A stretch of DNA of 18,344 bases from Hyella patelloides LEGE 07179. GTDB taxonomy: Bacteria > Cyanobacteriota > Cyanobacteriia > Cyanobacteriales > Xenococcaceae. Location of the stretch: contig NZ_LR213899.1 in the NCBI RefSeq assembly GCF_900659865.1, positions 1-18,344 on the forward strand. Direction: 5' to 3'. Positions 1-16,100 of this stretch are shown here, piece after piece. The notes beneath the pieces were generated by a model. The model did not search any database and was not told the origin of the DNA. It worked only from the letters and a program-made list of their open reading frames with translations. The position numbers and the translations under genes were made by a program. Every line of letters begins with the position of its first letter. Positions within the stretch are counted from its first letter, which is position 1.

Positions 1-16
1 AAAAATCACGAAGAAA

Positions 17-118
17 TTAAATTTTTCTGCGGAATGTGAGATAAATGATGTCGGGTCCTGGAGTGCAAATCATCACAACCGCAGTAGTGAAGAACAAAAC
101 AATATTTGAGAGTGGCAT
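17..118 (-). pseudogene. Short ORF resembling the N-terminus of a LysE/RhtB-family exporter, closed prematurely (possible gene remnant)
   Basis: Manual minus-strand translation from ATG 118..116 gives MPLSNIVLFFTTAVVMICTPGPDIIYLTFRRKI, then TAA at 19..17. A hydrophobic N-terminus followed by TPGPD is the pattern I associate with LysE/RhtB N-termini. The frame closes after 33 codons, whereas full-length members are ~200 aa. Too short for the supplied ORF track. Confidence 0.25.
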
Positions 119-271
119 AAAACTAACTTTCTCTTAAAATGAAGTTGTTCAAGAAACAAGAATTTTGAATATTATAGCGAATGGTTAAGTTTTAGCTGTT
201 GGGTACTTTCCGTATAAATCAGATACCAGTATTAATTTGGAAACTATTTAATTTAGTATTTAAAGACTCTA

Positions 272-1450
272 TCAATCGGATAAGGGTTCAGAAGTCTGAT
301 TGAGGCGCATCCACATAGGTAACTGACGCTCGCCTCCACTTGTTACACGTTCTAGGGCAGCCTCAATTTCTAAGCGGACATCAAACTCACTTTCATCCCC
401 TAGAGCTTTTTGTAGAGCTTCAACTGAGCTTGACTCTGCTACTTCATTAAGAAAACGTGCTGCTCTCCAACGCACAAAGGAGGAACTGTCTTCTAAAGCA
501 AGGCACATAGTAGGTATGGCTTCGACATTACCCAAATCACTTAAGGCATCGCCAGCAGTGCGTCGAACTACTGCAATCGGGTCGTTAAGTACCAATTTAC
601 TCAGAGGTTCGATAGCTTCTTGTCTTTCACTAGAACCAAGGAGTGCTGCTGCCCAACGTCTAACGGTGGCTTTGGGATCTTCTAAAGCTTGTACAAGAGC
701 AGGGAAAGTCTGAGGATTTATTTCCAGCTTTTGAATAGCTTTGAGTCTAGTTTTCCAATCACTGCTACCGAGCAAAACAAGTAAATCTTCTGGTTTGGCT
801 TTCTCTTTGATTATTGTTGGTGTTTTGGAACCAGTGATGATTCTCTCGGACAATCGAGCCAATTCCTCTTCATCGATGAGACTAGCGATTTCTTCGACCA
901 TCATCTTGGCTACTTCTTCTGGTTGACCAGAACGGGATGGATAAGGTTCCCAGTATCTTTCCTCTACATAGTTAGCTCCTGTAGCATCAATGACCCGTTG
1001 TAAAGTTTGCTCGAAACGAGCGGGCAAATTGACTCTAGCTTGTTCAAATGCACCTATAACTTTCACTTGAGTAGGGAGACAACGAAAGAATAATACGGCA
1101 ACTTCTACTAATCCTAAACTCTTACTAGTTTCTGCCAAAGATGAGGTGGATAAATCTTTCGATCTATTCAGTATTTCTGTATCGGCATTTTCAGCTAGCC
1201 CCAGTATCCCTGAAGCTCTGGAGAGAATTGTTTCCCAGTCAGCATTATTGTGACGAGTCAGGGTAATAAAATTAGACGCAAGAAAAACTTCTCGCACTCC
1301 TTCAATATCGAGCAACTGAAACACTTTATCAGGGACATTAGAGAGCGTTTTGCCCCGTTGTAGGGACAGAGGTTTTTCCACAATCTGCTCGTCCAGGTTA
1401 AGCTTCATGGAGTTGGGATTAGGAGTGGTTTCTAGGTTCGAGAGTTTCAT
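272..1450 (-). CDS. Nfu_N-domain / HEAT (PBS-lyase-type) repeat protein; conserved cyanobacterial family, function unknown
   Basis: ORF 272..1534. The codon at 1534..1532 is TTG. The first ATG (1450..1448) gives MKLSNLETTPNPNSMKLNL, the TPNPN hallmark at the very N-terminus of Nfu/NifU N-terminal scaffold domains, so I prefer the 1450 start. The C-terminal third has four HEAT_PBS-like units (DWKTRLKAIQKL, DPKATVRRWAAALLG, DPIAVVRRTAGDALSDLG, DSSSFVRWRAARFLNE). Confidence 0.75.
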   Translation of the reverse strand: MKLSNLETTPNPNSMKLNLDEQIVEKPLSLQRGKTLSNVPDKVFQLLDIEGVREVFLASNFITLTRHNNADWETILSRASGILGLAENADTEILNRSKDLSTSSLAETSKSLGLVEVAVLFFRCLPTQVKVIGAFEQARVNLPARFEQTLQRVIDATGANYVEERYWEPYPSRSGQPEEVAKMMVEEIASLIDEEELARLSERIITGSKTPTIIKEKAKPEDLLVLLGSSDWKTRLKAIQKLEINPQTFPALVQALEDPKATVRRWAAALLGSSERQEAIEPLSKLVLNDPIAVVRRTAGDALSDLGNVEAIPTMCLALEDSSSFVRWRAARFLNEVAESSSVEALQKALGDESEFDVRLEIEAALERVTSGGERQLPMWMRLNQTSEPLSD

Positions 1451-1666
1451 GGCTGTTGTTTTTCTTAAAGTACAACTAAAAACTGACAGATTAGATTTAA
1501 TTTTTCCTACACTATTAATCACTAATTCGACCAATCGAACTGGGAATATATCCAGCCACGATCTCGATGTTTGACATAGGAATGAACTACTACAATCAAC
1601 AAGGCGATCTCACTACCTGAAATAGTCAAGTAAGAGCAAAACTACTACTTAAATAGTGAACATTAA

Positions 1667-1879
1667 CTATCTTCTCTGCCACAAAAGAGGTAAAAAAGAA
1701 CCCCCAATAAAACCCACACCAGCGCAAAAGGCTAGCAAAACTCCAATAGGAAATTGAATAGATTGCCAAACTAAGAATTTGAGGGATACAGTTTGAATAT
1801 TTTGAATCGAAAAAACTGCGACCGCACTAACCCAACCTGCTACTATTAAAGAGTTAATAAAATTGGCAAAAATCTTCAT
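1667..1879 (-). CDS. Small two-TM membrane protein, LapA-domain/DUF1049-like
   Basis: 70-aa ORF with ATG start. Two hydrophobic helices flank SIQNIQTVSLKFLVWQSIQFPIGVLL, matching the LapA-domain pattern as I remember it (QN..v.l.Fl.w....P). Lies 64 bp downstream of the ExbD-like gene on the same strand. Confidence 0.55.
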   Translation of the reverse strand: MKIFANFINSLIVAGWVSAVAVFSIQNIQTVSLKFLVWQSIQFPIGVLLAFCAGVGFIGGSFLPLLWQRR

Positions 1880-1943
1880 TGTTATTTATTGCTTGTTAGT
1901 GATTGGCTGATATTTACTTGTTTTTTATTCCTCACTCCTTAAC

Positions 1944-2642
1944 TTATTGTACTCCGATGGCTCGACCACCAGAGCCAAATTGAATCGGTAAATCCAGCTT
2001 ATGAGGTTCCCAACCCACATCGAAACCTTTTGCCCAAGCTTGTTCCCTAGCAGCACGAAACCCAGAAAAACTATTAGGTCTGACAATAAAAGCCAGATAA
2101 TCTTTTTGGGGGTCTAATTGTGCTAAAGTTGCGTTGAATTGAGATTCAGGAAGGGCAAATTGCTCTTCGGTTTCTCCTGATTTAGTTTTGATCGGATCGT
2201 AACGCAAGGAAAAAGTACTGGCATTAGTCATCGTTACGTTGTAGTAATCAGTGGTGGTGCGAAAATTGATTAAACGACTAGCCCGACTATTAACACAAGC
2301 ATTATGATTATTTAATCCTGTTAAATATTGACCAGAATTAACATCTGAACCTAAATCTGGTCTATTACAATTGGGTAAATTACCAATAACATCTTGAATA
2401 TCTTTACCTACTTTTTCATCATCTATATAGGTTATTTGATTATCGCGAATTTCAAAAAAGCGAGGAGTTTTTTCGGTTTTAGAAACCAAAGGAGTTTGCA
2501 CAATAGAATCTGCTTCAACAGCGATTAAAGTAACAAATAAACTAATAAACATTAATACCCCAACAGTGTTAGTTAGAATATCTAAAAAAGAATCTAAATT
2601 TTGATCTGGGGTACTAGTTTTGCGCCTTCTACGGTTTCTCAT
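1944..2642 (-). CDS. ExbD/TolR-like single-pass membrane protein (long paralog, retains the TM aspartate)
   Basis: 232 aa, ATG start, basic N-terminus (MRNRRRRK). DQNLDSFLDILTNTVGVLMFISLF aligns by eye to the ExbD/TolR N-terminal motif (EINVTPFIDVMLVLLIIF), with Asp21 at the conserved proton-relay position. The C-terminus DYLAFIVRPNSFSGFRAAREQAWAKGFDVGWEP resembles the ExbD periplasmic domain and matches the neighbouring 157-aa protein. Confidence 0.6.
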   Translation of the reverse strand: MRNRRRRKTSTPDQNLDSFLDILTNTVGVLMFISLFVTLIAVEADSIVQTPLVSKTEKTPRFFEIRDNQITYIDDEKVGKDIQDVIGNLPNCNRPDLGSDVNSGQYLTGLNNHNACVNSRASRLINFRTTTDYYNVTMTNASTFSLRYDPIKTKSGETEEQFALPESQFNATLAQLDPQKDYLAFIVRPNSFSGFRAAREQAWAKGFDVGWEPHKLDLPIQFGSGGRAIGVQ

Positions 2643-2657
2643 AATAATTGTTAATTA

Positions 2658-3131
2658 TTAGTTACTGTTATTTATTTCTTCTTCAGTTTTCAATGTCCAA
2701 CCAGCATCTATCGGTTCATAGCCAATATCAATTTCTTCTTTTTCGAGAATGGCACGAACTTGATTAAACACATCAATTGCATTGGGTCTTAGTGCTACAA
2801 TTAAATATTCACTATCCTTATTGGCTTTAACTTCTGCTATTAATTGTTGTAATGGAGAGTTAGGGTCTTGTAGTTGGTCTATGGGAACAAATTCTTCACT
2901 AGGATATAAAACGATTCCTTCAGAGCGACATTCTATATAGCGAGGGCTTTTACTGGCGTTGACTCCACTTTCTTCTTCTTTGGCTACTATCGCTACTTCT
3001 TGTTGATTCAAAGCTTGGGTGGTTAGCACAATAATTAATAAGATTAATGTGCCAATAGTACAAGCCAAAATAGATAAAAAAGGGAATAATTCTATTTCAG
3101 TATGTTTTCGGGAAATACTGCGTCTACGCAT
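2658..3131 (-). CDS. ExbD/TolR-like single-pass membrane protein (short paralog, Ser in place of the TM aspartate)
   Basis: 157 aa, ATG start. HTEIELFPFLSILACTIGTLILLIIVL aligns closely by eye with ExbD EINVTPFIDVMLVLL, but Ser20 replaces the conserved Asp. C-terminus EYLIVALRPNAIDVFNQVRAILEKEEIDIGYEP. Gaps are 28 bp to the upstream MotA-like gene and 15 bp to the downstream paralog, so an operon is likely. Confidence 0.6.
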   Translation of the reverse strand: MRRRSISRKHTEIELFPFLSILACTIGTLILLIIVLTTQALNQQEVAIVAKEEESGVNASKSPRYIECRSEGIVLYPSEEFVPIDQLQDPNSPLQQLIAEVKANKDSEYLIVALRPNAIDVFNQVRAILEKEEIDIGYEPIDAGWTLKTEEEINNSN

Positions 3132-3159
3132 ATTAATTGTTCATTATTAATTAGTAAAG

Positions 3160-4584
3160 TTATTGTCTCCCATTATAGTTATCCTGCTCAACCAAAGTGA
3201 TTTTACGAGGTTTATTTAAGTTGTTTAAAACTGGTCTAAGCTGACCTAAATTATCTCTTACTTCTTCTAAAACCTGTGCTAGTTTCGCTGTTTTTTCTAA
3301 AGAACGTAGGCTTTCATCTAGACTAGCTTGCCACTCTCGAAGATCGCTAATTTTACTAGCACTTTTCCCTAAAGCAATTACTCTATTTTCTAAAATATTA
3401 GCAGCCTGTTCTAACTGCTTGGTGATTTGTCTAGCTTGTAAATTCAAACCATCTGCTAAATGATTATTCTTAGCTTTAATTTCTGTCACTAAAGCTTGTA
3501 TTGTAGCTACAGCTTCTTGATTAGCCTGCTGTTGTTGAGCAAAAAATTCCATAAATTGTTGTCGATCTCGATCTGCTAATTGCCTGACTTCTCCCACTTG
3601 AGTAATTACTTGGGAGCTAACATCTTGTACTTTACTAATTTCTGATAAAAAACCTTTTGCTAAAGAACTAGCTGCTTGTTGAGCATAATTATGAGCAGGT
3701 TCGACTAATTTTTCTGGATTGGGAAAATGTTCGTTAATAGCACCTTGTACCGCCGTATTAATAGCTTCTGCGCTAAGACTTTGCTTTTTATCTCTCAGGC
3801 GAGGTAATAATTTATCGTTAATAAAAATATCAATTCCGAGTAACAAACGAGATTCATAACGCTCTACTAACACCAGAGGAATCATTACTAAAACACTCAA
3901 GAAAAGAGCTAACAAAGTAGTATCAAAGGCTACAGCTAAACCACCAGTAACCATTCCAATACCCTCTTTAATTTGCTCAACATCTCCTGCTTCTTGTAAA
4001 AAACCAGAAAAACCACTAACTGCACTACTAATACCAACTACAGTTCCGATAAAACCCAATAGAGGAATTGCCCAAACAAGGATGCGAGGTACGGAAAAAG
4101 AAGACTCTGAAGCACTTTGATAAAAAGAAGAATCATCAAGAGCAAATTCTGTGGCTGTTTCACGATCGCCAGACTTGATGTAAGCTGCTACAATACGACC
4201 ACAACGCCTTGCTACTAGACTACCTTCGCTCATTAAGCGTTCTTGTAAGTAGCTAACTTCATCAGAATTAGGTTTCCCTAATGGAATATGCTCTGCGATC
4301 CAAATTTTACTCAAAGCATTATATTCTGGTTGTAAAGTTAATAGCTTAAGAGATATTGTCGCAATGACCATTGCTGCTAAAAACATTACTAGGTATTGAG
4401 TAAAGCCTCTATCATAGAGTAGAACCCCAATAGCAGACTCTTTAAAAGGATATAGTAGGGTGTAGAAGGCAATTACTAGACCTATACCAATGATACTCAC
4501 TAGAGGTATACTTACCTCTAACTCTTGGCGTTTAGAACTTTGGGTGCGGGATTTCGATCTAGATTTCGATCTAATTTTTTTCAT
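3160..4584 (-). CDS. MotA/TolQ/ExbB-family proton-channel subunit with a long C-terminal alpha-helical (coiled-coil-like) tail
   Basis: 474 aa, ATG start. Two N-terminal TM helices (aa ~25-45 and ~62-84), a soluble loop, then the family signature IPLLGFIGTVVGISSAVSGF ... GIGMVTGGLAVAFDTTLLALFLSVLVMIPLV (aa ~165-250, nt ~3835..4092). Residues ~255-474 are Q/E/A/L-rich and low in Pro/Gly with heptad-like spacing (QQQQANQEAVATIQALVTEIKAKNNHLADGLNLQARQITKQLEQAANILENRVIALGK). Confidence 0.85.
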   Translation of the reverse strand: MKKIRSKSRSKSRTQSSKRQELEVSIPLVSIIGIGLVIAFYTLLYPFKESAIGVLLYDRGFTQYLVMFLAAMVIATISLKLLTLQPEYNALSKIWIAEHIPLGKPNSDEVSYLQERLMSEGSLVARRCGRIVAAYIKSGDRETATEFALDDSSFYQSASESSFSVPRILVWAIPLLGFIGTVVGISSAVSGFSGFLQEAGDVEQIKEGIGMVTGGLAVAFDTTLLALFLSVLVMIPLVLVERYESRLLLGIDIFINDKLLPRLRDKKQSLSAEAINTAVQGAINEHFPNPEKLVEPAHNYAQQAASSLAKGFLSEISKVQDVSSQVITQVGEVRQLADRDRQQFMEFFAQQQQANQEAVATIQALVTEIKAKNNHLADGLNLQARQITKQLEQAANILENRVIALGKSASKISDLREWQASLDESLRSLEKTAKLAQVLEEVRDNLGQLRPVLNNLNKPRKITLVEQDNYNGRQ

Positions 4585-4656
4585 TGTAGTTATTATAATT
4601 TATGGTCATTATTAATAAGCTTTCTGAGCGATCGCTTATGAGGGAGATACTACCGA

Positions 4657-4670
4657 GTAAGTATACTTAC
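4657..4670. promoter_or_regulatory. Perfect 14-bp palindrome GTAAGTATACTTAC in the divergent promoter region (candidate operator)
   Basis: Read directly from the sequence; the site is its own reverse complement. It lies 73 bp upstream of the MotA-like start (4584) and ~280 bp upstream of the lipoprotein start (4953). Flanking CTTATG (4635..4640) and CATAAG (4670..4675) are also complementary. Confidence 0.2.
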
Positions 4671-4952
4671 ATAAGAGGTATTTCAGAAATCAACCTATTA
4701 TCAATGAACTATTATCTTTACTTTATATACGTATACAGTTGAATAATAGTGAAGATAACTAATGTATTTGGGCTATTTGTCTAAAGATTGAGTAAAGAAC
4801 AAAAATTAAGTATTTTTGCGAAACTTAGCATAAAAAGATGATTGTGTAAATTTACTTATAGATTTTATGCTCTCATTTCAAAAATAGCAAAAACACTGAA
4901 TCATATTGAATATCAATTGTATTGGGCTATTGGGATAAATTAGGAGAACACA

Positions 4953-5735
4953 ATGTTGAAAAAAACTCAGATCGGACAAAAAAACAGAAATTATATGGCG
5001 TTTTTGTTCCCTTTTCTGTGTTGTCTTTTAATGCTTTTAACAGGATGCGTTAACTATGACGTAGGGATTAACTTCAATAGCCCCCACAATGGTAATATTG
5101 TCCAGCACATTAAAATTGGACAGCAATTAAACAATCTGGATCGCTCTGATGTCAAAAAATGGTTGAATAGTATAGAGTCGCGATCGCGTAAATTACAAGG
5201 CAAAGTCAAAAAGCCCAATGCTGAAGAACTAATTGTGACTATTCCTTTTCGTAACGGGAAAGAACTAGCAACTAAATTCAATCAACTATTTCATAGCGAA
5301 ATTCCTGCTACCTCTGCGGTTTCTACAGCAGAAAATTCCGACTTAACCAAGCTCGATTCTTATATCACCCTGAAACAAAATAATCTGTTACTGTTAGAAC
5401 GTAATAGCCTAGATTTGGCGATTGATTTGCGAGCATTAAACATTCTCACTCGTCAAGATAAAATAACGATTAACAGCGATCGCTTGATTGACTTGGATTT
5501 TCAACTAAATACCCCCTGGTTAGCTTACAGTGCATCAGGAGAAAATAATCTTCAACCCATTCCTAACTCGCCTACCAAAAAATTAATGTGGCATCTGCAA
5601 CCTGGAGAAATTAATTATATCAAAGCCGTATTTTGGTTGCCAAGTCCTCTAGGAATTGGTGCAGTGGCTATTACTGTCTTGATGATTTTGGGTTTCTACC
5701 TTAAATATCAGCGTTTCCCAGGAGTTGCATCCTGA
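4953..5735 (+). CDS. Lipoprotein with a C-terminal TM anchor, function unknown
   Basis: 260 aa, ATG preceded by AGGAG (4942..4946, 6-nt spacer). Signal peptide with lipobox LLMLLTG-C. C-terminal hydrophobic helix SPLGIGAVAITVLMILGFYL. No catalytic motifs recognised. Confidence 0.7.
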   Translation: MLKKTQIGQKNRNYMAFLFPFLCCLLMLLTGCVNYDVGINFNSPHNGNIVQHIKIGQQLNNLDRSDVKKWLNSIESRSRKLQGKVKKPNAEELIVTIPFRNGKELATKFNQLFHSEIPATSAVSTAENSDLTKLDSYITLKQNNLLLLERNSLDLAIDLRALNILTRQDKITINSDRLIDLDFQLNTPWLAYSASGENNLQPIPNSPTKKLMWHLQPGEINYIKAVFWLPSPLGIGAVAITVLMILGFYLKYQRFPGVAS

Positions 5736-5832
5736 AAGAAAACGCTCAATTTAAGTTGGTTCTTGCGAATCCAAACAAAAACGTGTTATACCTATTTATG
5801 CAGCAAAAGAATGTTTCACTGCAACCACGTAA

Positions 5833-5906
5833 GGACGTATAGCTCAGTTGGTTAGAGTACATCGTTGACATCGATGGGGTCCCCCGTTCGAGTCGGGGTA
5901 CGTCCA
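5833..5906 (+). tRNA. trnV: tRNA-Val (anticodon GAC)
   Basis: Hand-folded cloverleaf. Acceptor GGACGTA/TACGTCC; D arm GCTC-AGTTGGTTA-GAGT; anticodon stem CATCG/CGATG with loop TTGACAT (GAC at 5867..5869); variable loop GGGTC; T arm CCCCG-TTCGAGT-CGGGG; discriminator A. CCA is not encoded. Confidence 0.92.
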
Positions 5907-5946
5907 TATATATTCAGTATATATTGCGATTTTGTGTTGTGACTTA

Positions 5947-6008
5947 AACCATAACTTTACCGTTGTGGCAAGCTTATGTTTAAAAGCAACCTTGGTAAAC
6001 CTATGGTT
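5947..6008. other. Imperfect extended hairpin downstream of tRNA-Val
   Basis: AACCATAACTTTACCGTTG ... CAACCTTGGTAAACCTATGGTT: 15-nt outer arms match 13/15 and an inner GTTG/CAAC pair follows a 3-nt bulge. No adjacent T-run on either strand, so it is not a canonical terminator. Confidence 0.3.
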
Positions 6009-6154
6009 GGAAAAAAAATTAGCAATCAATTCGTTTAAAGTATTTCTCATCTCTTCACACCACAAGTGTCCAGGTTAAGAAATTAATAAAGATCGTATCT
6101 AAACTGGATTTATAGTCGTTCCAATTAATTTCCTTACGTTGTTAAACATTGGTA

Positions 6155-6260
6155 AAAGGATGAAGGATAAAGGATGCCCTAAAGGATACCGCTTCCGCCT
6201 TAGGACTCGCTACGCATCGCGCGACCGAAGGAAGTCCTTTAGGGCATAAAGGATGAAAAG
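6155..6260. repeat. MITE-like palindromic element flanked by AAGGATGAA-type direct repeats
   Basis: Perfect 13-bp inverted repeat ATGCCCTAAAGGA (6174..6186) / TCCTTTAGGGCAT (6235..6247) around a GC-rich 48-nt core. Flanks are AAAGGATGAAGGATAAAGG (left) and AAAGGATGAAAAG (right). The core composition differs sharply from its AT-rich surroundings. Confidence 0.5.
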
Positions 6261-6389
6261 TAGTACTGAGTAACTTGTGGTTTCTATTTGAAATTATTAT
6301 AGTATCAGACGAAATTTGGTAATATTTTAATTGATCCTCAACAAAAGAAATCAAGATTCTCTTAATTAGCCTGACTCATTAAGTATATT

Positions 6390-6417
6390 TTCCTAAGACT
6401 AAATTCCTAAGACTAAA
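6390..6417. repeat. Perfect 14-bp tandem direct repeat (TTCCTAAGACTAAA x2) upstream of the histidine kinase
   Basis: Read directly: 6390..6403 and 6404..6417 are identical. Located ~115 bp upstream of the kinase ATG (6532). Confidence 0.6.
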
Positions 6418-6531
6418 GTCTCCCCACTCAACCAACAACTACTACAAAAGTGATAAATTTAGGCTTTATTGTGGTCATCAGAGTAAACTTAGAACTTTAA
6501 TAAAAGAAGACTCTCCCAACTTATTATTTCC

Positions 6532-7746
6532 ATGATTCCCCCTTTAAAATTTCTCCCCAATCCTTTTCGCTTTTTGCTGATTACTGAATGGGTAATGCTT
6601 GCCAGTTGCGGTTCTCTGGCTGTGGTGGAAGCTTGGCAGGGTCACATGATCCCTGTCCAACACATATCTATTCTAGTGGCACTAGGTTTGATGGGTTTAA
6701 TTTTGCCTAACGGAAGTCTCATAATTAAAGTGATTTATACCGCTATTGAAATTGGCTTAATTTTTTATGGGACGGTATTGGGATACCTGCATATTTTGCC
6801 TACGCTATATCTAATTGTGGTAATGCGGAGTTGCTTTTTGTTTGAATCCTTGGGTCGATGGATCGTAACTGGTTTAGTCTTTATTTTGTTTTTAGGAGAT
6901 CAGTTTAAATATATTCAGCGCGCTTTACCAGAAGAACCAGAGGCTCAAATTCATTTTGGAATGCACACAATAGCAGAAACATTGGTATTTGGTCTGGCTA
7001 TCTTTTTTGTGTTGCAGTTGACCAATAGAATATTAACCGAACGTCAAATGCGACAAAAACTTGCCAATGCTCACGAACAGCTACAGCAGTATGCTCAAAA
7101 AGTTGAAGAACTGGCAACCGTGCAAGAACGTAATCGTATTGCTCGCGACATTCATGACTCTTTAGGTCACGCTCTCACCAGTTTAAATATTCAGATGCAA
7201 ACTGCCGTCAAACTCTGGGAAAGAGAACCCGCACAGGCTCGCACCTTTTTGGCACAGGCTCAACATTTAGGTAAAACAGCAATGCAGGAAGTGCGTAAAT
7301 CCATTAGTACCTTAAGAGAAGATGCCAAAGACGAAAAACCTCTAGAAACCAAAATCGAGGCTTTGGTGGATGATTTTCGCAAAGGAACTGGATTGTCAAT
7401 TTGTACCAACATTAGTCGCTGTGGTTCAGTTCCAATACCAGTGGCTAAAACTGTTTATCGTATCGTACAAGAAGCTTTGACCAACATTTTTAAATACGCT
7501 CAAGCCACAGAAGTCCAAATTCACCTCAAAACCACTCACAAATGGGTTTATCTAACTGTGGAAGATAATGGTAAAGGGTTCGATTGCAAGCAAAAAAGTG
7601 CTGGGTTTGGGCTTCGGGGAATGCAAGAGCGAGTAGTTGCGGTTAATGGTCAATTTCGACTTAAAACCTCACCAGGAAAAGGCTGTCGAATAGAAGTGCA
7701 AATTCATAGTCTGAATGAATCTAAGAATGTTCTACAAGAAGTTTGA
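6532..7746 (+). CDS. Membrane sensor histidine kinase, NarL/DegS type (HisKA_3 + HATPase_c)
   Basis: 404 aa. The first ~165 aa are hydrophobic with about five TM helices. Coiled linker, then H-box ERNRIARDIHDSLGHALTSL (His208 at 7153..7155), N-box QEALTNIFKYA, G1 EDNGKGF, G2 GFGLRGMQER. Confidence 0.9.
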   Translation: MIPPLKFLPNPFRFLLITEWVMLASCGSLAVVEAWQGHMIPVQHISILVALGLMGLILPNGSLIIKVIYTAIEIGLIFYGTVLGYLHILPTLYLIVVMRSCFLFESLGRWIVTGLVFILFLGDQFKYIQRALPEEPEAQIHFGMHTIAETLVFGLAIFFVLQLTNRILTERQMRQKLANAHEQLQQYAQKVEELATVQERNRIARDIHDSLGHALTSLNIQMQTAVKLWEREPAQARTFLAQAQHLGKTAMQEVRKSISTLREDAKDEKPLETKIEALVDDFRKGTGLSICTNISRCGSVPIPVAKTVYRIVQEALTNIFKYAQATEVQIHLKTTHKWVYLTVEDNGKGFDCKQKSAGFGLRGMQERVVAVNGQFRLKTSPGKGCRIEVQIHSLNESKNVLQEV

Positions 7747-7748
7747 TA

Positions 7749-7789
7749 AATAGCGATCGCACATTAGCCGAATACTCGCGATCGCTATT
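7749..7789. repeat. HIP1-based hairpin between the convergent kinase and regulator genes
   Basis: AATAGCGATCGC (7749..7760) and GCGATCGCTATT (7778..7789) form a perfect 12-bp inverted repeat with a 17-nt loop, starting 3 bp after the kinase stop. A third GCGATCGC follows near 7810. Confidence 0.6.
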
Positions 7790-7832
7790 GAGCTATTTCA
7801 CTCTTATTGCGATCGCTATAAAAATTAATTAC

Positions 7833-7861
7833 CTGAGATTTTAAAGAAATCTCAGTCTTTT
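7833..7861. terminator. Candidate bidirectional intrinsic terminator
   Basis: CTGAGATTT (7833..7841) / AAATCTCAG (7847..7855) with a 5-nt loop, followed by TCTTTT on the plus strand and by an A/T-rich run with TTTTT on the minus strand. The stem is AT-rich, so it is weak. Confidence 0.35.
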
Positions 7862-7868
7862 AAGCTAC

Positions 7869-8510
7869 TTATCTAGCACAATTAGCATAAATAGCTATCT
7901 GCGATCGATTGCGTAGATTTAGTCGATTTAGAATATGAGTAACATGAGTTTTGACAGTTCCTTCAGCGATATAAAGTTGTTTGGCAATTTCACGATTAGT
8001 ACAACCAGTACCAATTAATTGTAGTACTTCTACTTCCCTTGGGGTCAACTCTGTTAGCTCTAGTTCATCTGATTCAGTTTCGGTTATGCTGGAATCTAAA
8101 ATACCATCGAGCATTTTTTCCATTAGTCCAGGTCCCATCTGGGTATATCCCCGATGTACTAACCGAATTGCCTGGGCTAGCTCTTCGACAGGCATATCCT
8201 TAAGCAGATATCCTTTTGCTCCTGCTTTAATGGCATGAGCGATGTAGTCATCTTCATCAAATGTGCTGACAACTAAAACCTTAACATCGGGAAATCTTTG
8301 AGCAATAATTCTCGTTGCTTCTCTTCCGTCCATGATAGGCATCCTGATATCCATCAAGACGACATCTGGTTTGAGAATTGCTACCTGTTCAATAGCAGTT
8401 TGCCCATTGTTAGCAATTCCTACTACTTCTAAATCTGACTCCAGATTTAACATTGCTTGTAATCCCTGAGAAACTAATTCTTGATCGTCTACCAGTAAAA
8501 GGCAAATCAT
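7869..8510 (-). CDS. Response regulator, NarL/FixJ family (REC + LuxR-type HTH)
   Basis: 213 aa. LLVDDQ acidic pocket, phospho-acceptor context VVLMDIRMPIMDG (Asp54), KGYLLKD. C-terminal LTPREVEVLQLIGTGCTNREIAKQLYIAEGTVKTHVTHILNRL is a classic LuxR/GerE HTH. GGAG lies ~9 nt upstream of the ATG. Confidence 0.92.
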   Translation of the reverse strand: MICLLLVDDQELVSQGLQAMLNLESDLEVVGIANNGQTAIEQVAILKPDVVLMDIRMPIMDGREATRIIAQRFPDVKVLVVSTFDEDDYIAHAIKAGAKGYLLKDMPVEELAQAIRLVHRGYTQMGPGLMEKMLDGILDSSITETESDELELTELTPREVEVLQLIGTGCTNREIAKQLYIAEGTVKTHVTHILNRLNLRNRSQIAIYANCAR

Positions 8511-8764
8511 TCAAATTAACTCCAGCTTTTGATATGAATAAAACTTAGACTTTGCTGATTTAAAGCAGAAACTAAAAGTAATACTGTTCGGAGCTTCAGA
8601 GCTTCGGAGCTTTTAGTTGATTATCATTCTTTAAGACTATAAAAGTAATCAACATGGTGACAGGATCGGCAAAGGGTATACTAGCATCTCTTACTATCAA
8701 TTCGCGGTCATACCAAATCCGAATTACATACCCAGTTTATATATGAAACCGTTAACCCACTCCA

Positions 8765-8784
8765 AGACGTATCATGATACGTCT
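8765..8784. repeat. Perfect 20-bp palindrome AGACGTATCATGATACGTCT, partnered with a distal GTAGAGACGT
   Basis: Read directly; the site is self-complementary. Its right edge extends to ACGTCTCTAC (8779..8788), whose reverse complement GTAGAGACGT recurs at 8886..8895. CAAATCCG / CGGATTTG form another inverted pair ~100 bp apart. Confidence 0.6.
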
Positions 8785-9266
8785 CTACACTAAATATTGA
8801 TTGGGGTTTTACTAAACGGATTTGAGATCAGACACAATCCTATTGACACACAATATAATATTTAGCGATAAAATCGTTAAATCCTGTAGAGACGTGTTTA
8901 TAGGATGTTCTGATAATCATATTTGATATTATACCCTGATTCAGCAACGCCAACTTGATTATTGATAGTTTTTAAATTCAGTAAAATATCATTGCAGAAC
9001 TTCTGAAAACTCTTGTTTAAATTTTTTTACCTTAGAACACCAATTTTGGTATTTCTGCCAAATTTCTAAGTACAGAAAATAATTAATTAACAGGAAATAG
9101 TTAATTTTACAAAAGTAATAAAGTACCAACCTTATTTGAGTAATTGCGATCGCAATCTGCTTTTTTTGTTTAATCAGGCTTTGTGCGTTGTGCTTTGCTA
9201 ATTTGATTTGAATTCACACACACTTGATATTAGTAATAACCTCAATATTAAATCCTTAGATTACGT

Positions 9267-12200
9267 TCACGTCACGCAAGAGATCGCGCCTAAAATTTTC
9301 AGAGTTTCTTGTTGTGCAGGGGTTAAACCAGTTACTCCAGTAATATTCATATTTTCATAGAGTCTAGGAACTCTAAGGGTTTTCAGACATTCCCCCGTTG
9401 CTACATCCCAAAGTTTGGTAGATTGATCTTGAGAACCACTGGCAAGAATTCTCCCATCAGGGCTAAAGGTAACGGAACAGACTTTATTGCTATGTCCGAT
9501 TAAAGTTTGCAGACATTTTCCTGTTTGGATATCCCATAATTTAACAGTTTGATCGCTACTACCACTGGCTAAGATTTCCTGAGTGGAGTTGCTGGAAAAT
9601 ATAGAAGTAGCAGCAACGGAAAAAACAAATCCTTGATGTCCTTCAAAAACCCTGAGACATTTTCCTGTAGCAATATCCCACAATCTAACTTGATTGTCTG
9701 CACTACCACTAATAATAGCCTTATCGTTTGGACTGAAGGCAACGGAATAGACTCCTGGAGAATCTTCAGCAATATAAGTCTGCAAACATTTTTTGCTGTT
9801 AAAATCCCATAATTTAATTGCACCATTACTACTTCCACTAACCAGAAATTTCCCGTCTTCACTAACAGTTAAAGACCAGACTTGAGGTTCAGAAATCACA
9901 GTATAAATTCCAGTGTTAAGATTCCAAAATCTGATTGTGCCATCCCCTCCACTACTAACTAGGGTTTGACCATCAGGATGAAAAGCGATCGCCCTAATCC
10001 AGTCTTCATGACCCACTAAAGCTTGGTTACATTCACCAGTATTGATATCCCATATTCTAATCTGGCGATCTGCACCACCACTAGCGAGAATTTTGTCCCT
10101 ATTCGAGGATAAACTATTAGGACTAAAAACAACCGACCAAATATGATCTTGATGTCCTGATAAAGTTTGCTGGCACTCTCCTGTTTGAATATCCCATAGT
10201 CTCACTTTATAGTCACTGGAAATACTAGCTAAAATCAAATTGGTTTGTTTTTGAGTAAAAGCAACGGGAAATGCCCAATCTGTATGACTTTCGATATTAC
10301 GGAGACATTGTCCTGTAGTGACATCCCATAGCTTGACGGTGCGATCTAAACTAGCACAAATTACAGTATTTTCATCAGCCCCAAAATCAACTGTGACGAT
10401 CTGATTTTTGTGTCCGTATAAAGTTTTAAGACACCGATCTGTAGTTATATCCCATATTCTGATGGTGGTATCACCACTCCCGCTAGCAAAGATAAATCTT
10501 TTGCCACTATTGCTCAAAGGACTAAAAGCAATGGAATAGACTCCACTACTATGATCGGTATAGGTTTTATGACATTTACCTGTTTTCAGATTCCACAGCT
10601 TGATAGTATGGTCGTCACTCCCACTAGCCAGAATCACACCTTCTGACTGATTCAACGGAATCGGACTAAAAGCAACCGAACGTATCCAACCATGATGTCC
10701 CGTTAAAGTTTGCAGACATTCCCCTGTCTGGATATTCCATAATTTGACAGTGCGATCGCTACTACCACTAGCCAGAATTGTACCATCGGGACTAAATGCA
10801 ACCGAACGTACCCAACCATTATGTCCCGTTAAAGTTTGTAGACATTCCCCTGTTTGGATATCCCATAATTGAATACTGCGATCGCTACTGCCACTAGCTA
10901 GAATTATACCATTGGGACTAAATGCCACTGTATAAATTTCATTTTTGTGTCCGATAAAAGTTCTTAAACATTCTCCTGTCTGGATATCCCATAATTGAAT
11001 ACTGCGATCGCTACTGCCACTTACTATCATCTGACCATCGGGACTAAAAGCAATGCAACGAACCCAATTATGATGTCCCTCACAAACAGTTAGTAATTTA
11101 CCTGTATACCTATCCCAAAGACTTACTTTGTTTCCATTATCACAAGTTGCAAATTTATCCCCTTGAGGACTCAAAGCAGCCGATAAAATATTACCTAAAG
11201 TTGCGGTAAATATCGACTGAGATAGATCGCAATTAGTAAAATCAGTCTGATGTAAATTTAAACCTTGTAAATTAGCTTGCCAAACTGTTAATCCTGAAAA
11301 GTTATAATCAGTTAAATCGATTTTTAATTGACGTAATAAATTAATCGTATTACCAGCAAAATAACCTTTTATTGATTTCGCTTTCCAGGTTGCTAAATTC
11401 TTTTTTAAACAATTATTAATATCTTCGGCTGTGCCACAGGTAAACAATAATTCCTCTATCAAGGGTTTTAGAATCAGAAAGCTTTGTGAATCTTTAATGT
11501 ATTCTTTATTTTGAGCTTGAATGAGAGCATGACTATTGAATAAATTAATTTCTCCTGTAACTATTTCCTCACAAACTCTCTCAATTAATTCACTGATTAT
11601 ATATTCTATGATTACAGGTTGTTGAGTAAATTTATTATTATTAGTTTCAATTAAAGAACGATTTTTTAAATCAGTTAAAGCTTGAATTAAATCGCCTAGG
11701 GAAAGATTCGCAACAAAGTTTTCTTGTAATTTAGATAATGAAATTGGCTGACGCTCAATTGCCAACCAATACATAATATTTTGTTCGATCTGGTTGAGAC
11801 GTTGAAATTGTCGCTCCAAAAGAAGACGAATATCGTCAAAGATAAATAAGCCTTCTTGTAAAACTGCTAAAAAATCTTCAATATTACCAGAGAAAAAATC
11901 TTTGATATGAGAAGCAACAATCTTTAAAGCCAAAGGATTACCCCCATATCTTTCTAGCAATATTTGCCAAGTTGTTTCTGAACCACTAAATGAACCTTTA
12001 GTCTGGAAAATTTCTTTACCTTCTGCTTGTGACAAACCCTTTAATGGCAAACAACGATTAGGAAAATTTTTTCCTTCTAAAATTTCTAATTCTTTAAGTT
12101 TTTCCCTTGAGCTAATTAGTAAACAGCTTTGATGTTTAGTTTCAGCAATTGCTTGAAAAAGCTGACCGTATGCTTCGTAACCTTCTCGATAATGATTATT

Positions 12201-12890
12201 ATTGGGTGTTTGCTTATTTTCTAAAATAGATTCTGCATTGTCTAAAATTAATAAGCATTTATGATTACGCAAATATTCAAGCAATAAATTAATTTTATCT
12301 ACAGTTTTATCGGGTAGTTTTGTTTCTTTTTTATTACTAACAAATTGAATAATATCTGCTAATATGCTTTTACAAGAAGGTGCATTGCGAAGACTACGCC
12401 AAATAACAAAATTAAATTGATACTGAATGCTTTGGGCTATTTTAATCGCTAAAGCAGTTTTGCCAATTCCACCCATTCCTAACAGTAAAATCGAGCGACA
12501 TCGATCGCTTATAATCCATTTTCTGAGGGTGATTATTTCTTTTTGACGACCAAAAAATACAGAAACATCAATGGCTTCTCCCCAATCTTGATGATTGAGA
12601 TGAAAATCTTGATGAACGCTGCGATCTGAAATTACGCTTTGCCATTCCAAACCTAAAACTTGACAATAAGCTTGAAAAGCGCGATCGTTAATAGGATGTT
12701 TACCCCCCAAAAAACGTTTCCAAGTACCATAGGATATCCCTGAAGCTAACTTGTCCTCTTTTTCTCTAAAAATACCCAAAACTTCACTCGCAGACTCCAG
12801 CCAGCGATAATCATTAATATTCCAACCTTTTTCTTTTCTCGCTTGCTTAATGTTCCTCAGTCCTATGGCAGAAGCTATCAGCTTTTTCAT
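9267..12890 (-). CDS. STAND/NLR-like NTPase: N-terminal HTH-like/adaptor domain, NB-ARC P-loop, short pentapeptide stretch, 14 WD40 repeats, C-terminal cap motif
   Basis: 1207 aa, ATG start. Walker A GMGGIGKT (aa 138-145, nt 12456..12479); Walker [11 protein letters not shown]; [10 protein letters not shown], equivalent to the NB-ARC GLPLA motif. Pentapeptide-like [23 protein letters not shown] (aa ~539-561). I count 14 units of the pattern GH..x..VAFSPDG..LASGS.D.T(V/I)(K/R)LW(D/N) across aa ~563-1172 (nt ~9375..11204). Tail is [26 protein letters not shown]. Confidence 0.9.
10644..11021 (-). repeat. Three tandem 126-bp (42-codon) WD40 units with near-identical DNA blocks
   Basis: GCGATCGC occurs at 10752, 10878 and 11004, exactly 126 bp apart. 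The 53-nt blocks 10843..10895 and 10969..11021 differ at 2 positions. Units 2 and 3 are also near-identical through their centres (AACCGAACGTA(C/T)CCAACCAT(T/G)ATGTCCCGTTAAAGTTTG(T/C)AGACATTCCCCTGT). Protein: [17 protein letters not shown] twice, then [17 protein letters not shown]. Confidence 0.85.
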
Positions 12891-13177
12891 TCTTTACGAA
12901 GTGTTTAAAACAGAGAACAAGATAACCTTGTTTTGATTTTACACTTCTCGATCCTGAATTTTGTCTCGAAAAAATTCAAAATCGATCTGCGGAATTATTC
13001 GATTATTGATTTTCTTGAGAATTTGAGAAATTTTGCGATCGCGTTTGGCTCTAACATACGATCTTGACAAATATTAAAATTTAAAGTGAATAAAACGATT
13101 TCATCTTAAGCTGTAGTCAATAGGCATAATTAGTCACAACCTATTTATTGTGAGAAAAACTATCTAAAACAGTATCG

Positions 13178-16100
13178 ATGGTTGCCCTAAAAGTCTCTGC
13201 TCGGAGTTTAGCAATAGTAAAACAAGCCAGAAAAGCCAAAGGTTGGACAATTGATGATTATCGCTGGTTAGAAGAAGCCAGTAAAGTTTTGGGTACTTCA
13301 TGGCAAGAAAAAGGTTATTTTGCTAATGGTATTTCCGAAGGGACTTGGAAGCGTTTCTTATCAGGAAAATACGCAGTTAATGTTGATGCTTTTAAAGCCT
13401 TTTGTCAGGTTCTCGGACTCAAATGGCAAGAAATTATCGACCACAAAAATCATCAAGATTGGGGCGAAGAAATAGATGTTTCTGTATTTTTTGGGCGATC
13501 GCAAGAAATCAAGATGTTGCAAAAATATATTCTTGAAGATCGATGTCGTCTCGTTACCGTATTAGGTATGGGGGGAATTGGTAAAACTTCTCTGTCTATT
13601 AAAGTTACTCAATTAGTTGAAAATAAATTTGAATTTGTTATTTGTCGTAGTCTTCGCAACACCCCATCTGTAGAACAGGTAATAGCCGATTTCATTCAAT
13701 TTGTAAGCAAGCAAAAGCAAAAAGATTTACCCAATTCTTTAGAGCAAAAAGTGTCTCTTTTACTGCAATACTTAAGCTCGTCCCGTTGTCTTTTGATACT
13801 AGATAATGTGGAATCAATTTTACAGAGTGGCAACAATAAATCTCCTAATTTATCAAGAGAATCATATCGGGTAGGCTATGAAAATTATGGCTACTTAATA
13901 AGAGCGATCGCAGAAGCCAAACATCAAAGCTGCCTAATCTTAACCTCTCGCGAATCACTCCCCGAATTATCTACTTTAGAAGGAGACAATTTACCAGTTC
14001 GCTGTCTCCAACTAACAGGACTATCTCATCTAGAAGGACAAAAACTTTTATCGGCAAAAGGTTCTTTCTCTGGTACAAAAACAGAATGGCAGTCCTTAGT
14101 CGCTCGCTATAGTGGCAATCCTTTAGCTTTGAAGATAGTTTCCTCTAGCATTCTAGATTTTTTTAATGGTAGCGTTACGGATTTTATTAAAGTTTTACAA
14201 CAAGATCCCTTGATTTTCGATGATATTAGCGATCTCTTACAGCAGCAATTTACACGTTTAACTCTATTACAACAACAAATTATGTACTGGTTGGCAATTA
14301 ATCGCGAGCCAATTTCGATTCAAAATTTACAACAAGACTTGATAATTCCAGTTTCTTCTAGAGTATTATTTCAAGCTTTAATTTCTTTGCAAAAACGCTC
14401 TCTGATTGAAAATATTGATAACTTATTTAGTCTACAAACAGTAGTATTAGAATATATTATTTATCAATTAATTGTCAAAATTACCGAAGAAATAGTCAAT
14501 CAAAATATTGATATTTTAAATAAAATTTCTTTAGTAAAATCTCAAGCTAAAGATTATCTTAGAGAATCTCAAGAAACCCAACTAATTAGACCTATTGTCA
14601 ATAATTTAAGCAACTTTTTAGGAAGACGTGAAAATATCAAAAAGCAGATAGATGAAATTTTACAATCGCTACATTCTCAATCTCACTCTCAACAAAGAGG
14701 CTATTTAAGTGGTAATATTATCAATATTTTGCGTCATCTAAATATAGATTTACAAGGCTATGACTTTTCAGGATTAACAGTTTGGCAAGCTAACTTACAG
14801 GGACTAAAATTACATAACGTTAATTTTGCTAATGCAGACTTATCGAAATCAGTTTTTACTGAAACTTTAGGTAATATTTTATCCGCTATCTTTAGCCCTG
14901 ATGGTAAAACTTTAGCTACTTGTGATACTGATTGTCAGATTCGCCTCTGGGAAGTAGCAACAGGTAAACTTTTAATTATTTGCAAAGGGCATACTAATTG
15001 GATACGTTCTATTGCTTTTAGCCCTGATGGTAATGTTCTAGCCAGTGGTGGAGCAGATCGCACGGTCAAATTTTGGCAAGTTAAGGATGGTATTTGTCTC
15101 AAAACTTGTCGAGGACATGAAAATGAAATCTTTTCAGTTGCTTTTAGCCCTGACAATAAAACCTTAATTAGTGCTAGTGGAGATCATATTCTGCGTCTTT
15201 GGAATATTACCACTGGTAAATGTATTCAGACCCTTGAAGGACATGAAAGTTATGTGCGCTCGGTGGCATTTAGTCCCCTCGGCGATCTTGTTGCTAGTGG
15301 TAGTGACGATGGCACTATGAAAATTTGGGATATTACCACTGGTGAATGTATTCAAACCCTCAAAGACCATAAAAATGGGGTTCGTTCAGTAGCGTTTAGC
15401 CCTGATGGTCATGTTTTGGCTAGTGGAAGTAGCGATCGCACTGTCAAATTATGGGATGTTTCTACGGGAAAATGTCTTGCTACTTACAAACAGCATACTT
15501 CTGGAGTTTCTGCGGTTGCTTTTAGTTCCGATGGCATGACTTTAGCTAGCGGGAGTTGCGATCGCACTGTCAGGCTATGGAATTATCATACAGGCACTTG
15601 TATCCGAACTATTTACGGACACACTAATCAAATCTTTTCTCTTGCTTTTAGTCCAGAAGGAAGAAAAATAGTTTGTGTCAGTTTAGATCAAACTGTCAGA
15701 ATTTGGGACTGTCATAATGGGAAATGTTTAAAAACTTGGCAAGGTAGTACAGATTGGGTATTCCCCGTAGCCTTTAATTCTCAGGGTAATTTAATTGCTA
15801 GTGGTAGCAATGACAGTACTGTCAGAATTTGGGACTGGGAAAACAATGTTTGTCTTCAGAGTTTATCTGGTCATAGCGATCTAGTTTGTGCTGTCGCCTT
15901 CGCGCCCATTAACTCTAAGGGAATAGTTGCTAGTGCTAGTCGCGATCGCACGATTCGACTCTGGGATGTGACTACAAGTAAATGCTTGCAGATTTTGCAA
16001 GGACACGAAGACTGGGTATATGCAGTGGCATTTAGTCCTGATGGTACTATCTTAGCTAGTGGTGGCGCAGATCAAACCGCTAAACTTTGGGACATTAAAA

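Follow-up and report, generated by a model that had tools for sequence, protein, structure and literature searches.

A predicted long-tailed membrane motor with an asymmetric pair of TolR-like subunits in the cyanobacterium Hyella patelloides

Introduction

What kind of machine is encoded by three adjacent genes of Hyella patelloides LEGE 07179, one of which resembles the channel subunits of ion-driven membrane motors, and what could it drive? The genes lie in an 18,344-nucleotide stretch of DNA (hereafter the window), and a preliminary description made from the sequence alone had proposed that they encode a MotA/ExbB-type channel with a long helical tail and two ExbD-like paralogs, without an obvious TonB, flagellar or Zorya partner. 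Here, we examined this proposal by profile searches, structure prediction, profile-profile comparison and a survey of homologous loci, and every testable element of it was supported, although the continuous 30 nm helix that it had calculated for the tail was not shown.

Results

The three open reading frames, here called A, B1 and B2, were confirmed on the minus strand (Table 1), and hundreds of conserved homologues were found for all three proteins, so these are real genes and not chance ORFs. The AT-rich region between A and the divergent DUF3153 gene is the presumed promoter region of the trio, but the one promoter-like site detected there on the minus strand was not above chance.

Table 1 Coordinates of the trio and neighbouring features in the window
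Positions	Strand	Feature	Size or residues	Description
3160..4584	-	Gene A	474 aa	MotA/ExbB-superfamily channel subunit, four predicted TM helices and a long cytoplasmic tail
3163..3852	-	Tail of A	aa 245-474	Amphipathic helical region, cytoplasmic by topology
3187..3213	-	Tail-tip motif of A	K458-P-R-K-I-T-L-V-E466	Conserved
3132-3159		Gap between A and B1	28 bp
2658..3131	-	Gene B1	157 aa	Single-pass subunit of predicted TolR/ExbD fold, Ser20 in place of the transmembrane Asp
2643-2657		Gap between B1 and B2	15 bp
1944..2642	-	Gene B2	232 aa	Paralog of B1 with the transmembrane Asp (D21)
2163..2420	-	Insertion domain of B2	aa ~75-160	Contains C92 and C116, inside the periplasmic TolR-like domain
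1667..1879	-	LapA_dom gene	70 aa	Small membrane protein 64 bp downstream, possible lineage-specific accessory gene
4585..4952	.	AT-rich intergenic region		Presumed promoter region of the trio
4890-4862	-	Promoter-like site		Not above chance
4716-4697		Direct repeat		GATAAT-N8-GATAAT

We first asked whether A belongs to the MotA/TolQ/ExbB superfamily. It matched Pfam MotA_ExbB (PF01618) with 29.4 bits against a gathering cut-off of 22.9 over aa 139-235, and distant family members matched as well. A Kyte-Doolittle scan found four TM segments (aa 26-44, 65-83, 168-190 and 222-240) and a strongly basic N-terminus with 9 K/R, and the channel motifs of TM3 and TM4 were conserved, with P174, G180, T181, G184 and T223 invariant and T222 nearly so in the two alignments examined (A3 and A5). 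The remainder of A, from about aa 245, is amphipathic and helical. For aa 297-458, the best period was 3.6 residues, with a power of 100 against a shuffle maximum of 35.7 +/- 10.7, and 0 of 300 shuffles reached the observed value. No conserved Pro or Gly lies between aa 297 and 446, but a conserved proline cluster (P288, P290 and P296) breaks the tail, and the uninterrupted helical stretch is therefore about 150 residues (~22 nm if it is one helix), which makes 30 nm an upper bound. At the tail tip, P459 and R460 were nearly invariant in alignment A3, down to 25% identity, and a PRxIxLxE-type motif lay within the last 40 aa of 42 of 150 family representatives. Tail length varies widely among relatives, whose A proteins run from about 350 to 1033 aa with no fused enzymatic domain.

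The best solved relatives of A by sequence were two ZorA proteins, 8vvn (E 3e-8, aa 173-434), from a ZorAB complex reported in the type I/II Zorya study (PMC11890865), and, further down the same list, 8qyd of the E. coli type I system (E 0.0028), and both alignments included the ZorA tail. Weak ZorA hits were also obtained with NCBIfam (ZorA_2, 21.8 bits against a cut-off of 100) and PADLOC (best E 8e-6). However, the ZorA similarity largely disappeared when the tail was removed from the profile, so part of it is compositional, and the only PDB hit of the tail-less core profile was PomA (E 0.14), aligned in the loop-TM3-TM4 register.

Second, we examined the relationship of the two small proteins to each other and to ExbD/TolR. 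Profile-profile comparison of the two families by hhalign gave 98.5% probability and E 2.8e-15, which confirmed the paralogy that the preliminary description had seen by eye. The AF2 model of B1 (pLDDT 79 overall and >90 for aa 61-140) showed beta-beta-beta-alpha-beta-alpha-beta order, and its top Foldseek match in the PDB was E. coli TolR 5by4 (probability 0.99, E 8e-3, TM-score 0.53 on the target) with matching strand and helix order. The B1 family profile aligned to verified E. coli TolR/ExbD over the TM helix plus the whole domain (hhalign E 9e-5, probability 59%), although the hhalign probabilities to TolR were only 33-63%. In contrast, the full-length model of B2 had no significant PDB match, and B2 is linked to this fold only through its paralogy to B1. 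Pfam ExbD (PF02472) gave no hit for B1 or B2 at E <= 1, nor for distant B proteins at E <= 10, and only the Anabaena B1 homologue gave a sub-threshold hit (E 0.0036, 17.8 bits against a cut-off of 25.4). The relationship to ExbD/TolR is shown at fold and context level only. B1 also hit PADLOC ZorB1 at E 0.008.

Interestingly, the two paralogs differ in the membrane. In the alignment with TolR, D21 of B2 lies opposite TolR D23, and the B2 motif SFLDIL resembles TolR's PLLDVL, but B1 has S20 at this position. The asymmetry holds across distant relatives: the Asp was present in 36 of 36 B2-type genes in the metagenome loci, and Ser was found in about 40 of 49 B1-type genes. However, one subclade has Asp in both B genes, and one locus has a third B paralog. 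B2 is further distinguished by an ~85-aa insertion, which appears as a gap in B1 in the profile-profile alignment and for which the AF2 model predicts helices 75-86 and 103-124 and three strands at pLDDT 75-93. C92 and C116 in this insertion are invariant in the B2 alignment, and a disulfide between them is an inference.

Third, we surveyed the gene neighbourhoods of the homologues. The trio is conserved far beyond cyanobacteria. Both B genes were found in all 16 genome and plasmid loci that contain an A gene, in the two short Logan-assembly loci with room downstream of A, and in at least 21 of 32 informative metagenome loci, but one Geminocystis MAG has B1-B2 with no A gene within 9 kb. No TonB, OmpA-like domain, flagellar gene or ZorC/D was found in the window, and none is conserved beside the trio elsewhere. 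The only repeated neighbour was the LapA-like gene (Pfam LapA_dom, E 7e-9), which lies directly downstream of B2 in 7 Pleurocapsales-type loci besides the window but not in Symploca, Caldora, the plasmid loci or the distant loci.

Discussion

Taken together, the trio most likely encodes one self-contained inner-membrane machine of the 5:2 ion-driven motor kind, from a distinct and so far uncharacterised family, and we give this reading a probability of roughly 0.6. By analogy with the family, A most likely forms the pentameric proton channel ring, and, like ZorA, each A subunit continues after the last TM helix into a long amphipathic helix. These helices would bundle into a cytoplasmic tail of roughly 20-30 nm that ends in a conserved KPRxITLxE tip, as ZorA is documented as a 5:2 motor with a pentameric coiled-coil tail (PMC11946911). 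However, the tail could also fold back into a helical bundle rather than extend, as its PDB hits include apolipoprotein-like bundles. B1 and B2 most likely sit together as a heterodimer in the centre of the ring, and because only B2 carries the membrane-embedded Asp that takes up the proton in all known relatives, the pair would be intrinsically asymmetric. The periplasmic domains, including the Cys-containing insertion of B2, would hold the pair in the envelope or contact a periplasmic partner. Ion flow would turn or switch the A ring and its tail relative to B1-B2, and the output would then be delivered in the cytoplasm through the tail tip, rather than to TonB or a flagellar rotor. Since no multimer model or experimental data exist, the 5:1:1 stoichiometry, heterodimer formation, rotation, tail bundling and direction of signalling are all inferred, and no cytoplasmic partner for the tail tip was found. 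The physiological role is unknown, and the only experimental pointer, the iron-limitation response, concerns a presumed Synechocystis counterpart.

Compared with the known motors, the trio has several different features. ZorA has 3 TM helices (PMC11946911) and a tail of ~500 aa, against four and ~230 aa in A, and ZorB is a homodimer with an OmpA-like peptidoglycan-binding domain and Asp in both chains, whereas the trio has two different TolR-like subunits, only one of them with Asp. ExbB-ExbD and TolQ-TolR share the gene order of channel subunit followed by single-pass subunit(s), but ExbB and TolQ have 3 TM helices and no tail, ExbD and TolR are homodimers with Asp in both chains, and no TonB, TolA or Pal partner lies near the trio. 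The flagellar stators MotAB/PomAB share with A the four-TM, N-in topology and a cytoplasmic domain between TM2 and TM3, but the trio has no OmpA-like MotB domain and no flagellar genes, and the long tail and the two non-identical B subunits also differ. The gene content of one TolQ-like and two different TolR-like subunits matches the Myxococcus AglR-AglQ-AglS gliding motor, but no Glt gliding genes were found nearby.

Among the alternatives, the trio could be a third, divergent ExbB-ExbD set that energises TonB and TonB-dependent transporters for iron uptake, as proposed for sll0477-sll0478-sll0479 of Synechocystis sp. PCC 6803, but we consider this unlikely. That cluster, which the preliminary description had suggested as a counterpart, is one transcription unit of an ExbB-like gene and two hypothetical proteins and is induced 6.7-fold under iron limitation (PMC4195498), its genes are named exbB/exbD3/exbD4 with a Fur box in strain 6803 (PMC8634477), and reviews cite Jiang et al. 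2015 for three exbB-exbD operons. The suggested correspondence fits this gene content, and homologues of the trio occur in the related Chroococcales Crocosphaera, Cyanothece, Geminocystis and Microcystis. In addition, B1 has a TolR/ExbD-like predicted fold, and its homologues are called ExbD in JGI annotation. However, no TonB or TonB-dependent transporter was identified in the window, among the 25 commonest of 136 families in the pooled flank scan, in the loci with per-gene Pfam tables or as a conserved neighbour cluster, and the four TM helices and tail of A, the missing Pfam ExbD match and the lack of the essential Asp in B1 all speak against it. As far as we could find in the papers we read, the published work on sll0477-0479 does not describe the tail, the one-Asp asymmetry or the ZorA likeness.

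A Zorya-like anti-phage module, in which a tailed motor senses envelope damage and signals through its tail to separately encoded, exchangeable effectors, is less likely still. Besides the similarity to ZorA and the weak ZorA and ZorB hits, two plasmid copies do sit in defence islands. On Microcystis aeruginosa NIES-2481 plasmid p1, the trio directly follows a 1094-aa PLD + SNF2 helicase and lies among N6-methylase, SLATT, DUF559, HNH and GIY-YIG genes, and on Anabaena cylindrica pANACY.03 it directly follows a type III-B Cmr operon and lies near a viperin gene. A TIR + AAA_35 gene also lies downstream in Caldora, and two STAND NTPase-WD40 genes lie 4.7 kb away in the window. In contrast, most contexts are not defence islands, and chromosomal neighbours are mostly housekeeping genes that differ from locus to locus (MurT, PntAB, M16 peptidases and citrate synthase). 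No ZorC/D/E/F/G is present, nothing in the trio reaches a PADLOC or NCBIfam Zorya threshold, the B proteins lack the peptidoglycan-binding domain that defines ZorB, and the trio is absent from phage records. Identity falls smoothly with taxonomic distance, from 65-80% in Pleurocapsales to about 50% in other orders, and the LapA-like neighbour is retained across one order, both of which look like vertical inheritance.

Finally, a Tol-like or gliding/secretion-type envelope motor with mainly periplasmic output through the B1-B2 domains and the B2 insertion, and with a tail used only for assembly or localisation, is favoured by the AglRQS-like gene count, by the ~100-aa coiled-coil linkers that both B proteins gain in distant relatives and that would reach further into the periplasm, by a ~660-aa periplasmic beta-propeller-like gene between A and B1 or Pro-rich lipoprotein genes upstream in some clades, and by the LapA-like envelope protein downstream in Pleurocapsales, but it is the least likely, as it has no experimental support, no Tol, Pal, Glt or secretion genes are conserved nearby, and the tail and its tip are among the most conserved features across the family, which argues for a cytoplasmic function.

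A more far-reaching possibility, which remains doubtful but is not excluded, is that the trio defines a previously unrecognised and phylogenetically widespread class of tailed 5:2 motors with an obligately asymmetric central pair of one proton-carrying and one proton-blind subunit, which would relay the state of the envelope or the membrane potential into the cytoplasm through the conserved tail tip. On this reading, the class is a housekeeping relative, possibly the evolutionary source, of the Zorya sensor, and in cyanobacteria it would be wired to the metal-limitation response.

In conclusion, the gene trio of H. patelloides probably encodes an uncharacterised motor that differs from ZorAB, ExbBD, TolQR and MotAB in its asymmetric pair of single-pass subunits. 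All well-studied 5:2 motors (MotAB, ExbBD, TolQR and ZorAB) use two identical central subunits, and current rotary models rely on the two Asp residues taking turns, so a conserved family in which one of the two chains has lost the Asp would test those models directly. The family would also be a second case, outside phage defence, of a motor with a long cytoplasmic tail, which bears on how Zorya arose and on what such tails do. B1 and B2 match no Pfam or NCBIfam model, so two new families could be defined. For cyanobacterial physiology, it would mean, if the presumed Synechocystis counterpart is indeed an orthologue, that the third ExbB-ExbD invoked in iron-uptake studies is probably not an ordinary Ton motor, which would affect how the published mutant data are read.

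Sequence features of protein A

The three minus-strand ORFs were confirmed as noted in the preliminary description (Table), with gaps of 28 bp between A and B1 and 15 bp between B1 and B2. Each has hundreds of conserved homologues, so these are genuine genes. A and B1 have 100% matches labelled Hyella patelloides in the protein collection, whereas the best hit of B2 is 96% identical, and B2 may be uncalled or called differently in the public record. Protein A matches Pfam MotA_ExbB over aa 139-235 at 29.4 bits, above the cut-off of 22.9. A hydropathy scan gave four TM segments (26-44, 65-83, 168-190 and 222-240), with nine Lys/Arg in the N-terminus and an acidic loop between TM3 and TM4, which implies that both termini are cytoplasmic and that a cytoplasmic domain lies between TM2 and TM3, as in MotA/PomA. 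In comparison, ExbB, TolQ and ZorA have three TM helices. Across 24 family members down to 25% identity, the invariant residues cluster in TM3 and TM4 (P174, F178, G180, T181, G184, F220 and T223), and these are the channel motifs of the superfamily.

Table. Coordinates of the trio, its neighbours and related features in other loci
Locus	Feature	Position	Strand	Size
Window	Protein with Nfu_N (Fe-S scaffold N-terminal domain), a 'Virulence_fact' domain and HEAT/PBS-lyase repeats	272-1534	-	420 aa
Window	LapA_dom membrane protein, 64 bp downstream of B2	1667-1879	-	70 aa
Window	B2	1944-2642	-	232 aa
Window	B2 aa 56-65 (first strand of the domain)	2448-2477		
Window	B1	2658-3131	-	157 aa
Window	B1 aa 57-65 (first strand of the domain)	2937-2963		
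Window	A	3160-4584	-	474 aa
Window	Tail tip of A	3187-3213		
Window	Direct repeat GATAAT-N8-GATAAT	4697-4716		
Window	DUF3153 protein, divergent from the trio	4953-5735	+	
Window	Convergent pair of HisKA_3 histidine kinase and NarL/LuxR-type response regulator	6532-7746 and 7869-8510	+ and -	
Window	Two divergently oriented STAND NTPase proteins with pentapeptide and WD40 repeats	9267-12890 and 13178-16762	- and +	~1200 aa each
L002 (Xenococcaceae MAG)	DUF3153 protein, divergent from the trio	6639-7430		
L018 (Anabaena cylindrica pANACY.03)	Plasmid copy of the trio in a defence-rich region	1-14903		
L019 (Microcystis aeruginosa NIES-2481 plasmid p1)	Plasmid copy of the trio in a defence-rich region	4525-10559		
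L020 (Crocosphaera chwakensis)	A gene lacking most of the distal tail and the tip	1407-2585		392 aa
L021 (Geminocystis sp. GBBB08 MAG)	B1-B2 with no A gene within 9 kb	9001-10183		
L033 (metagenome locus)	Three B genes (Ser-type, an extra Asp-type and B2)	1151-2789		

After TM4, the protein runs on for about 230 residues. Residues 297-458 show strong amphipathic helical periodicity, with a best period of 3.6 and a power of 100 against a shuffle maximum of 35.7 +/- 10.7, and 0 of 300 shuffles reach the observed value. The phase drifts gradually rather than jumping, and no Pro or Gly is conserved between 297 and 446, but a conserved proline cluster (P288, P290 and P296) separates this stretch from the membrane-proximal part. 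The uninterrupted helix is therefore about 150 residues, roughly 22 nm if straight, and the length of about 30 nm proposed in the preliminary description is an upper bound; a folded-back bundle is not excluded. The tail ends in a motif, K458-PRKITLVE-466, in which the Pro-Arg and the alternating hydrophobic residues persist to 25% identity. The motif sits within the last 40 residues of 42 of 150 family representatives, and other subgroups have different but equally stereotyped tips, for example ...GEKQVVIQ...RRGWxxFGRR (basic and aromatic) and ...KPLDVQVQF, which suggests several tip classes with different targets. The KPRKITLVE tip also resembles the first strand of the B domains (K-S-PRYIECR and K-T-PRFFEIR), but by predicted topology they lie on opposite sides of the membrane, and this may be coincidence. 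When we looked for domains fused to longer tails that might reveal the output, none were found, and homologues of up to 1033 aa have only longer helical tails with no fused enzymatic domain. In Crocosphaera chwakensis, in contrast, the short A protein aligns only to aa 17-370.

With the full-length profile of A, the best PDB chain is 8vvn_C (E 3e-8, aa 173-434), a ZorA from the study of type I and II Zorya, and E. coli ZorA 8qyd also appears in the list, while canonical ExbB, TolQ and MotA are absent from the top 60. NCBIfam ZorA_2 and several PADLOC ZorA models gave weak hits, far below threshold. When the tail was removed from the profile, however, ZorA disappeared and only PomA remained, at E 0.14, so A cannot be claimed to be closest to ZorA in the TM core, and part of the ZorA score is compositional. 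A is thus best described as a deeply divergent MotA/ExbB-superfamily member with MotA-like topology and a ZorA-like tail. ZorA itself forms a 5:2 complex with ZorB and a pentameric coiled-coil tail of about 70 nm (PMC11946911). A literature search for ZorA-like proteins outside Zorya found nothing.

Relationship of B1 and B2 to TolR and ExbD

B1 and B2 are paralogs, as profile-profile comparison gave a probability of 98.5% and E 2.8e-15 over 138 columns. B2 carries an insertion of about 85 residues inside the domain (aa ~75-160) with two invariant cysteines, C92 and C116. Neither protein matches any Pfam or NCBIfam model, and profile searches of both families against PDB sequences found no ExbD, TolR or MotB. 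At the structural level, the picture is clearer for B1. Its AlphaFold model has pLDDT above 90 for aa 61-140 with the order beta-beta-beta-alpha-beta-alpha-beta, and its best Foldseek hit in the PDB is E. coli TolR 5by4 (probability 0.99, E 8e-3, TM-score 0.53 on the target). When the B1 family profile was aligned to E. coli TolR and ExbD sequences verified against the PDB, E 9e-5 and a probability of 59% were obtained over 114 columns, spanning the TM helix and the whole domain in a consistent register. In addition, the B1 homologue on an Anabaena plasmid gave a sub-threshold Pfam ExbD hit at E 0.0036, and B1 hits PADLOC ZorB1 at E 0.008. In contrast, the full-length model of B2 has a confident domain but no significant PDB match, presumably because of the insertion, although removing the insertion, or merging B1 and B2 into one profile, did not improve the match to TolR at the sequence level. 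We conclude that both are TolR/ExbD-fold proteins in function and probably in ancestry, and that they are not members of the Pfam ExbD family as currently defined.

Asymmetry of the transmembrane Asp

In the alignment to TolR, D21 of B2 (SFLDILTNT) lies opposite the essential TolR D23, whereas B1 has S20 (PFLSILACT) at that position. Ser is nearly invariant in the B1 family and Asp is nearly invariant in the B2 family, and the pattern persists in relatives with only 28-40% identity in A. In the metagenome survey, all 36 B2-type genes keep the Asp, and about 40 of 49 B1-type genes have Ser; most of the nine flagged as containing Asp have it only in the preceding cytoplasmic segment. True exceptions are a small clade with Asp in both genes (metagenome loci L039-L041 and L059) and one locus with an extra, Asp-bearing paralog (L033). 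A deeply conserved pairing of one Asp-bearing and one Asp-less subunit, always encoded side by side, argues for a B1-B2 heterodimer rather than two alternative homodimers, although this is an inference.

Conservation and genomic context

The A-B1-B2 order was found in 10 of 10 close genome loci, including Symploca and Caldora, as well as in more distant genome or assembly loci, in Crocosphaera and Hydrococcus, and on two plasmids. Of 32 metagenome loci with an A gene and at least 2.5 kb downstream, 21 have both B genes and 4 have one, and the shortfall is at least partly due to our crude ORF picking. No universal fourth gene was found. The only repeated neighbour is the LapA_dom membrane protein directly downstream, which is conserved in that position in 7 other Pleurocapsales-type loci but not elsewhere. 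The Nfu_N protein is not conserved next to the trio in other loci, and the divergent DUF3153 gene occurs in the same arrangement in one other Xenococcaceae MAG only. Other neighbours differ from locus to locus, and include MurT, PntAB, M16 peptidases, an ABC permease, TnpB, LexA, a caspase-kinase and a TIR-AAA_35 protein. In distant clades, the B proteins gain ~100-aa coiled-coil linkers. Some distant clades insert a large, apparently beta-propeller-like gene of ~660-770 aa between A and B1 (metagenome loci L044, L047, L049 and L053), with an NHL-like repeat motif seen by eye in one example, and others (the L051-L094 marine clade) carry small lipoprotein-like and extremely Pro-rich proteins just upstream of A. 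Promoter and terminator scans were at chance level. An E. coli-type Fur box was not found by eye upstream of the Hyella A gene, and the GATAAT direct repeat, which lies about 115-130 bp upstream of the A start codon in an AT-rich region, was not a good match to the E. coli Fur consensus by eye.

Discussion

A Ton motor for iron uptake, as proposed for Synechocystis sll0477-0479, is a less likely reading of the trio. In Synechocystis, sll0477-0479 is one transcription unit consisting of an 'ExbB-like' gene and two hypothetical proteins, and it is induced 6.7-fold under iron limitation (PMC4195498). The genes are named exbB/exbD3/exbD4, with a Fur box in strain 6803 (PMC8634477), and the cluster is counted as one of three exbB-exbD operons, citing Jiang et al. 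2015. The gene pattern, and the presence of the family in related Chroococcales, make orthology likely, although this estimate was made without comparison of the Synechocystis sequences. If it holds, the 'third ExbB-ExbD' is a tailed, asymmetric motor and probably not an ordinary Ton energiser. No TonB or TonB-dependent transporter was identified among the neighbours that were scanned or clustered, which removes the main objection anticipated in the preliminary description, namely that the cluster might consistently sit beside such genes as an ordinary Ton system. An insertion mutant of Anabaena sp. PCC 7120 exbB2 (alr4587) fails to grow without combined nitrogen (PMC8262864), but this is only a lead, because its orthology is unknown.

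A Zorya-like role in defence appears unlikely, but it is kept alive by the ZorA likeness and by the two plasmid copies, which lie in defence-rich regions. On Microcystis aeruginosa NIES-2481 p1, the trio directly follows a 1094-aa PLD + SNF2 helicase and is surrounded by an N6-methylase, a nucleotidyltransferase-SLATT pair, DUF559, HNH and GIY-YIG genes. On Anabaena cylindrica pANACY.03, it directly follows a type III-B Cmr operon plus a 510-aa protein with no Pfam match, and lies near viperin. The window itself also carries two proteins with an N-terminal NB-ARC/NACHT STAND NTPase, then pentapeptide repeats and then 12-14 WD40 repeats, an architecture often linked to signalling or immunity in cyanobacteria. 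However, chromosomal contexts are mostly housekeeping, identity declines smoothly with taxonomic distance, no Zor effector is conserved nearby, the B proteins lack the peptidoglycan-binding domain of ZorB, and searches of phage and viral collections gave no real hits.

In conclusion, the gene trio is real and its reading as a stator-like module in the preliminary description is sound. The best-supported mechanism is a 5:2-type ion-driven complex acting on an unknown target, in which, as inferred from the family, an A pentamer with a ZorA-like cytoplasmic tail would surround a B1-B2 heterodimer with a single proton-binding Asp. The trio defines two protein families with no current model, and it offers a natural test of how 5:2 motors use their two Asp residues.
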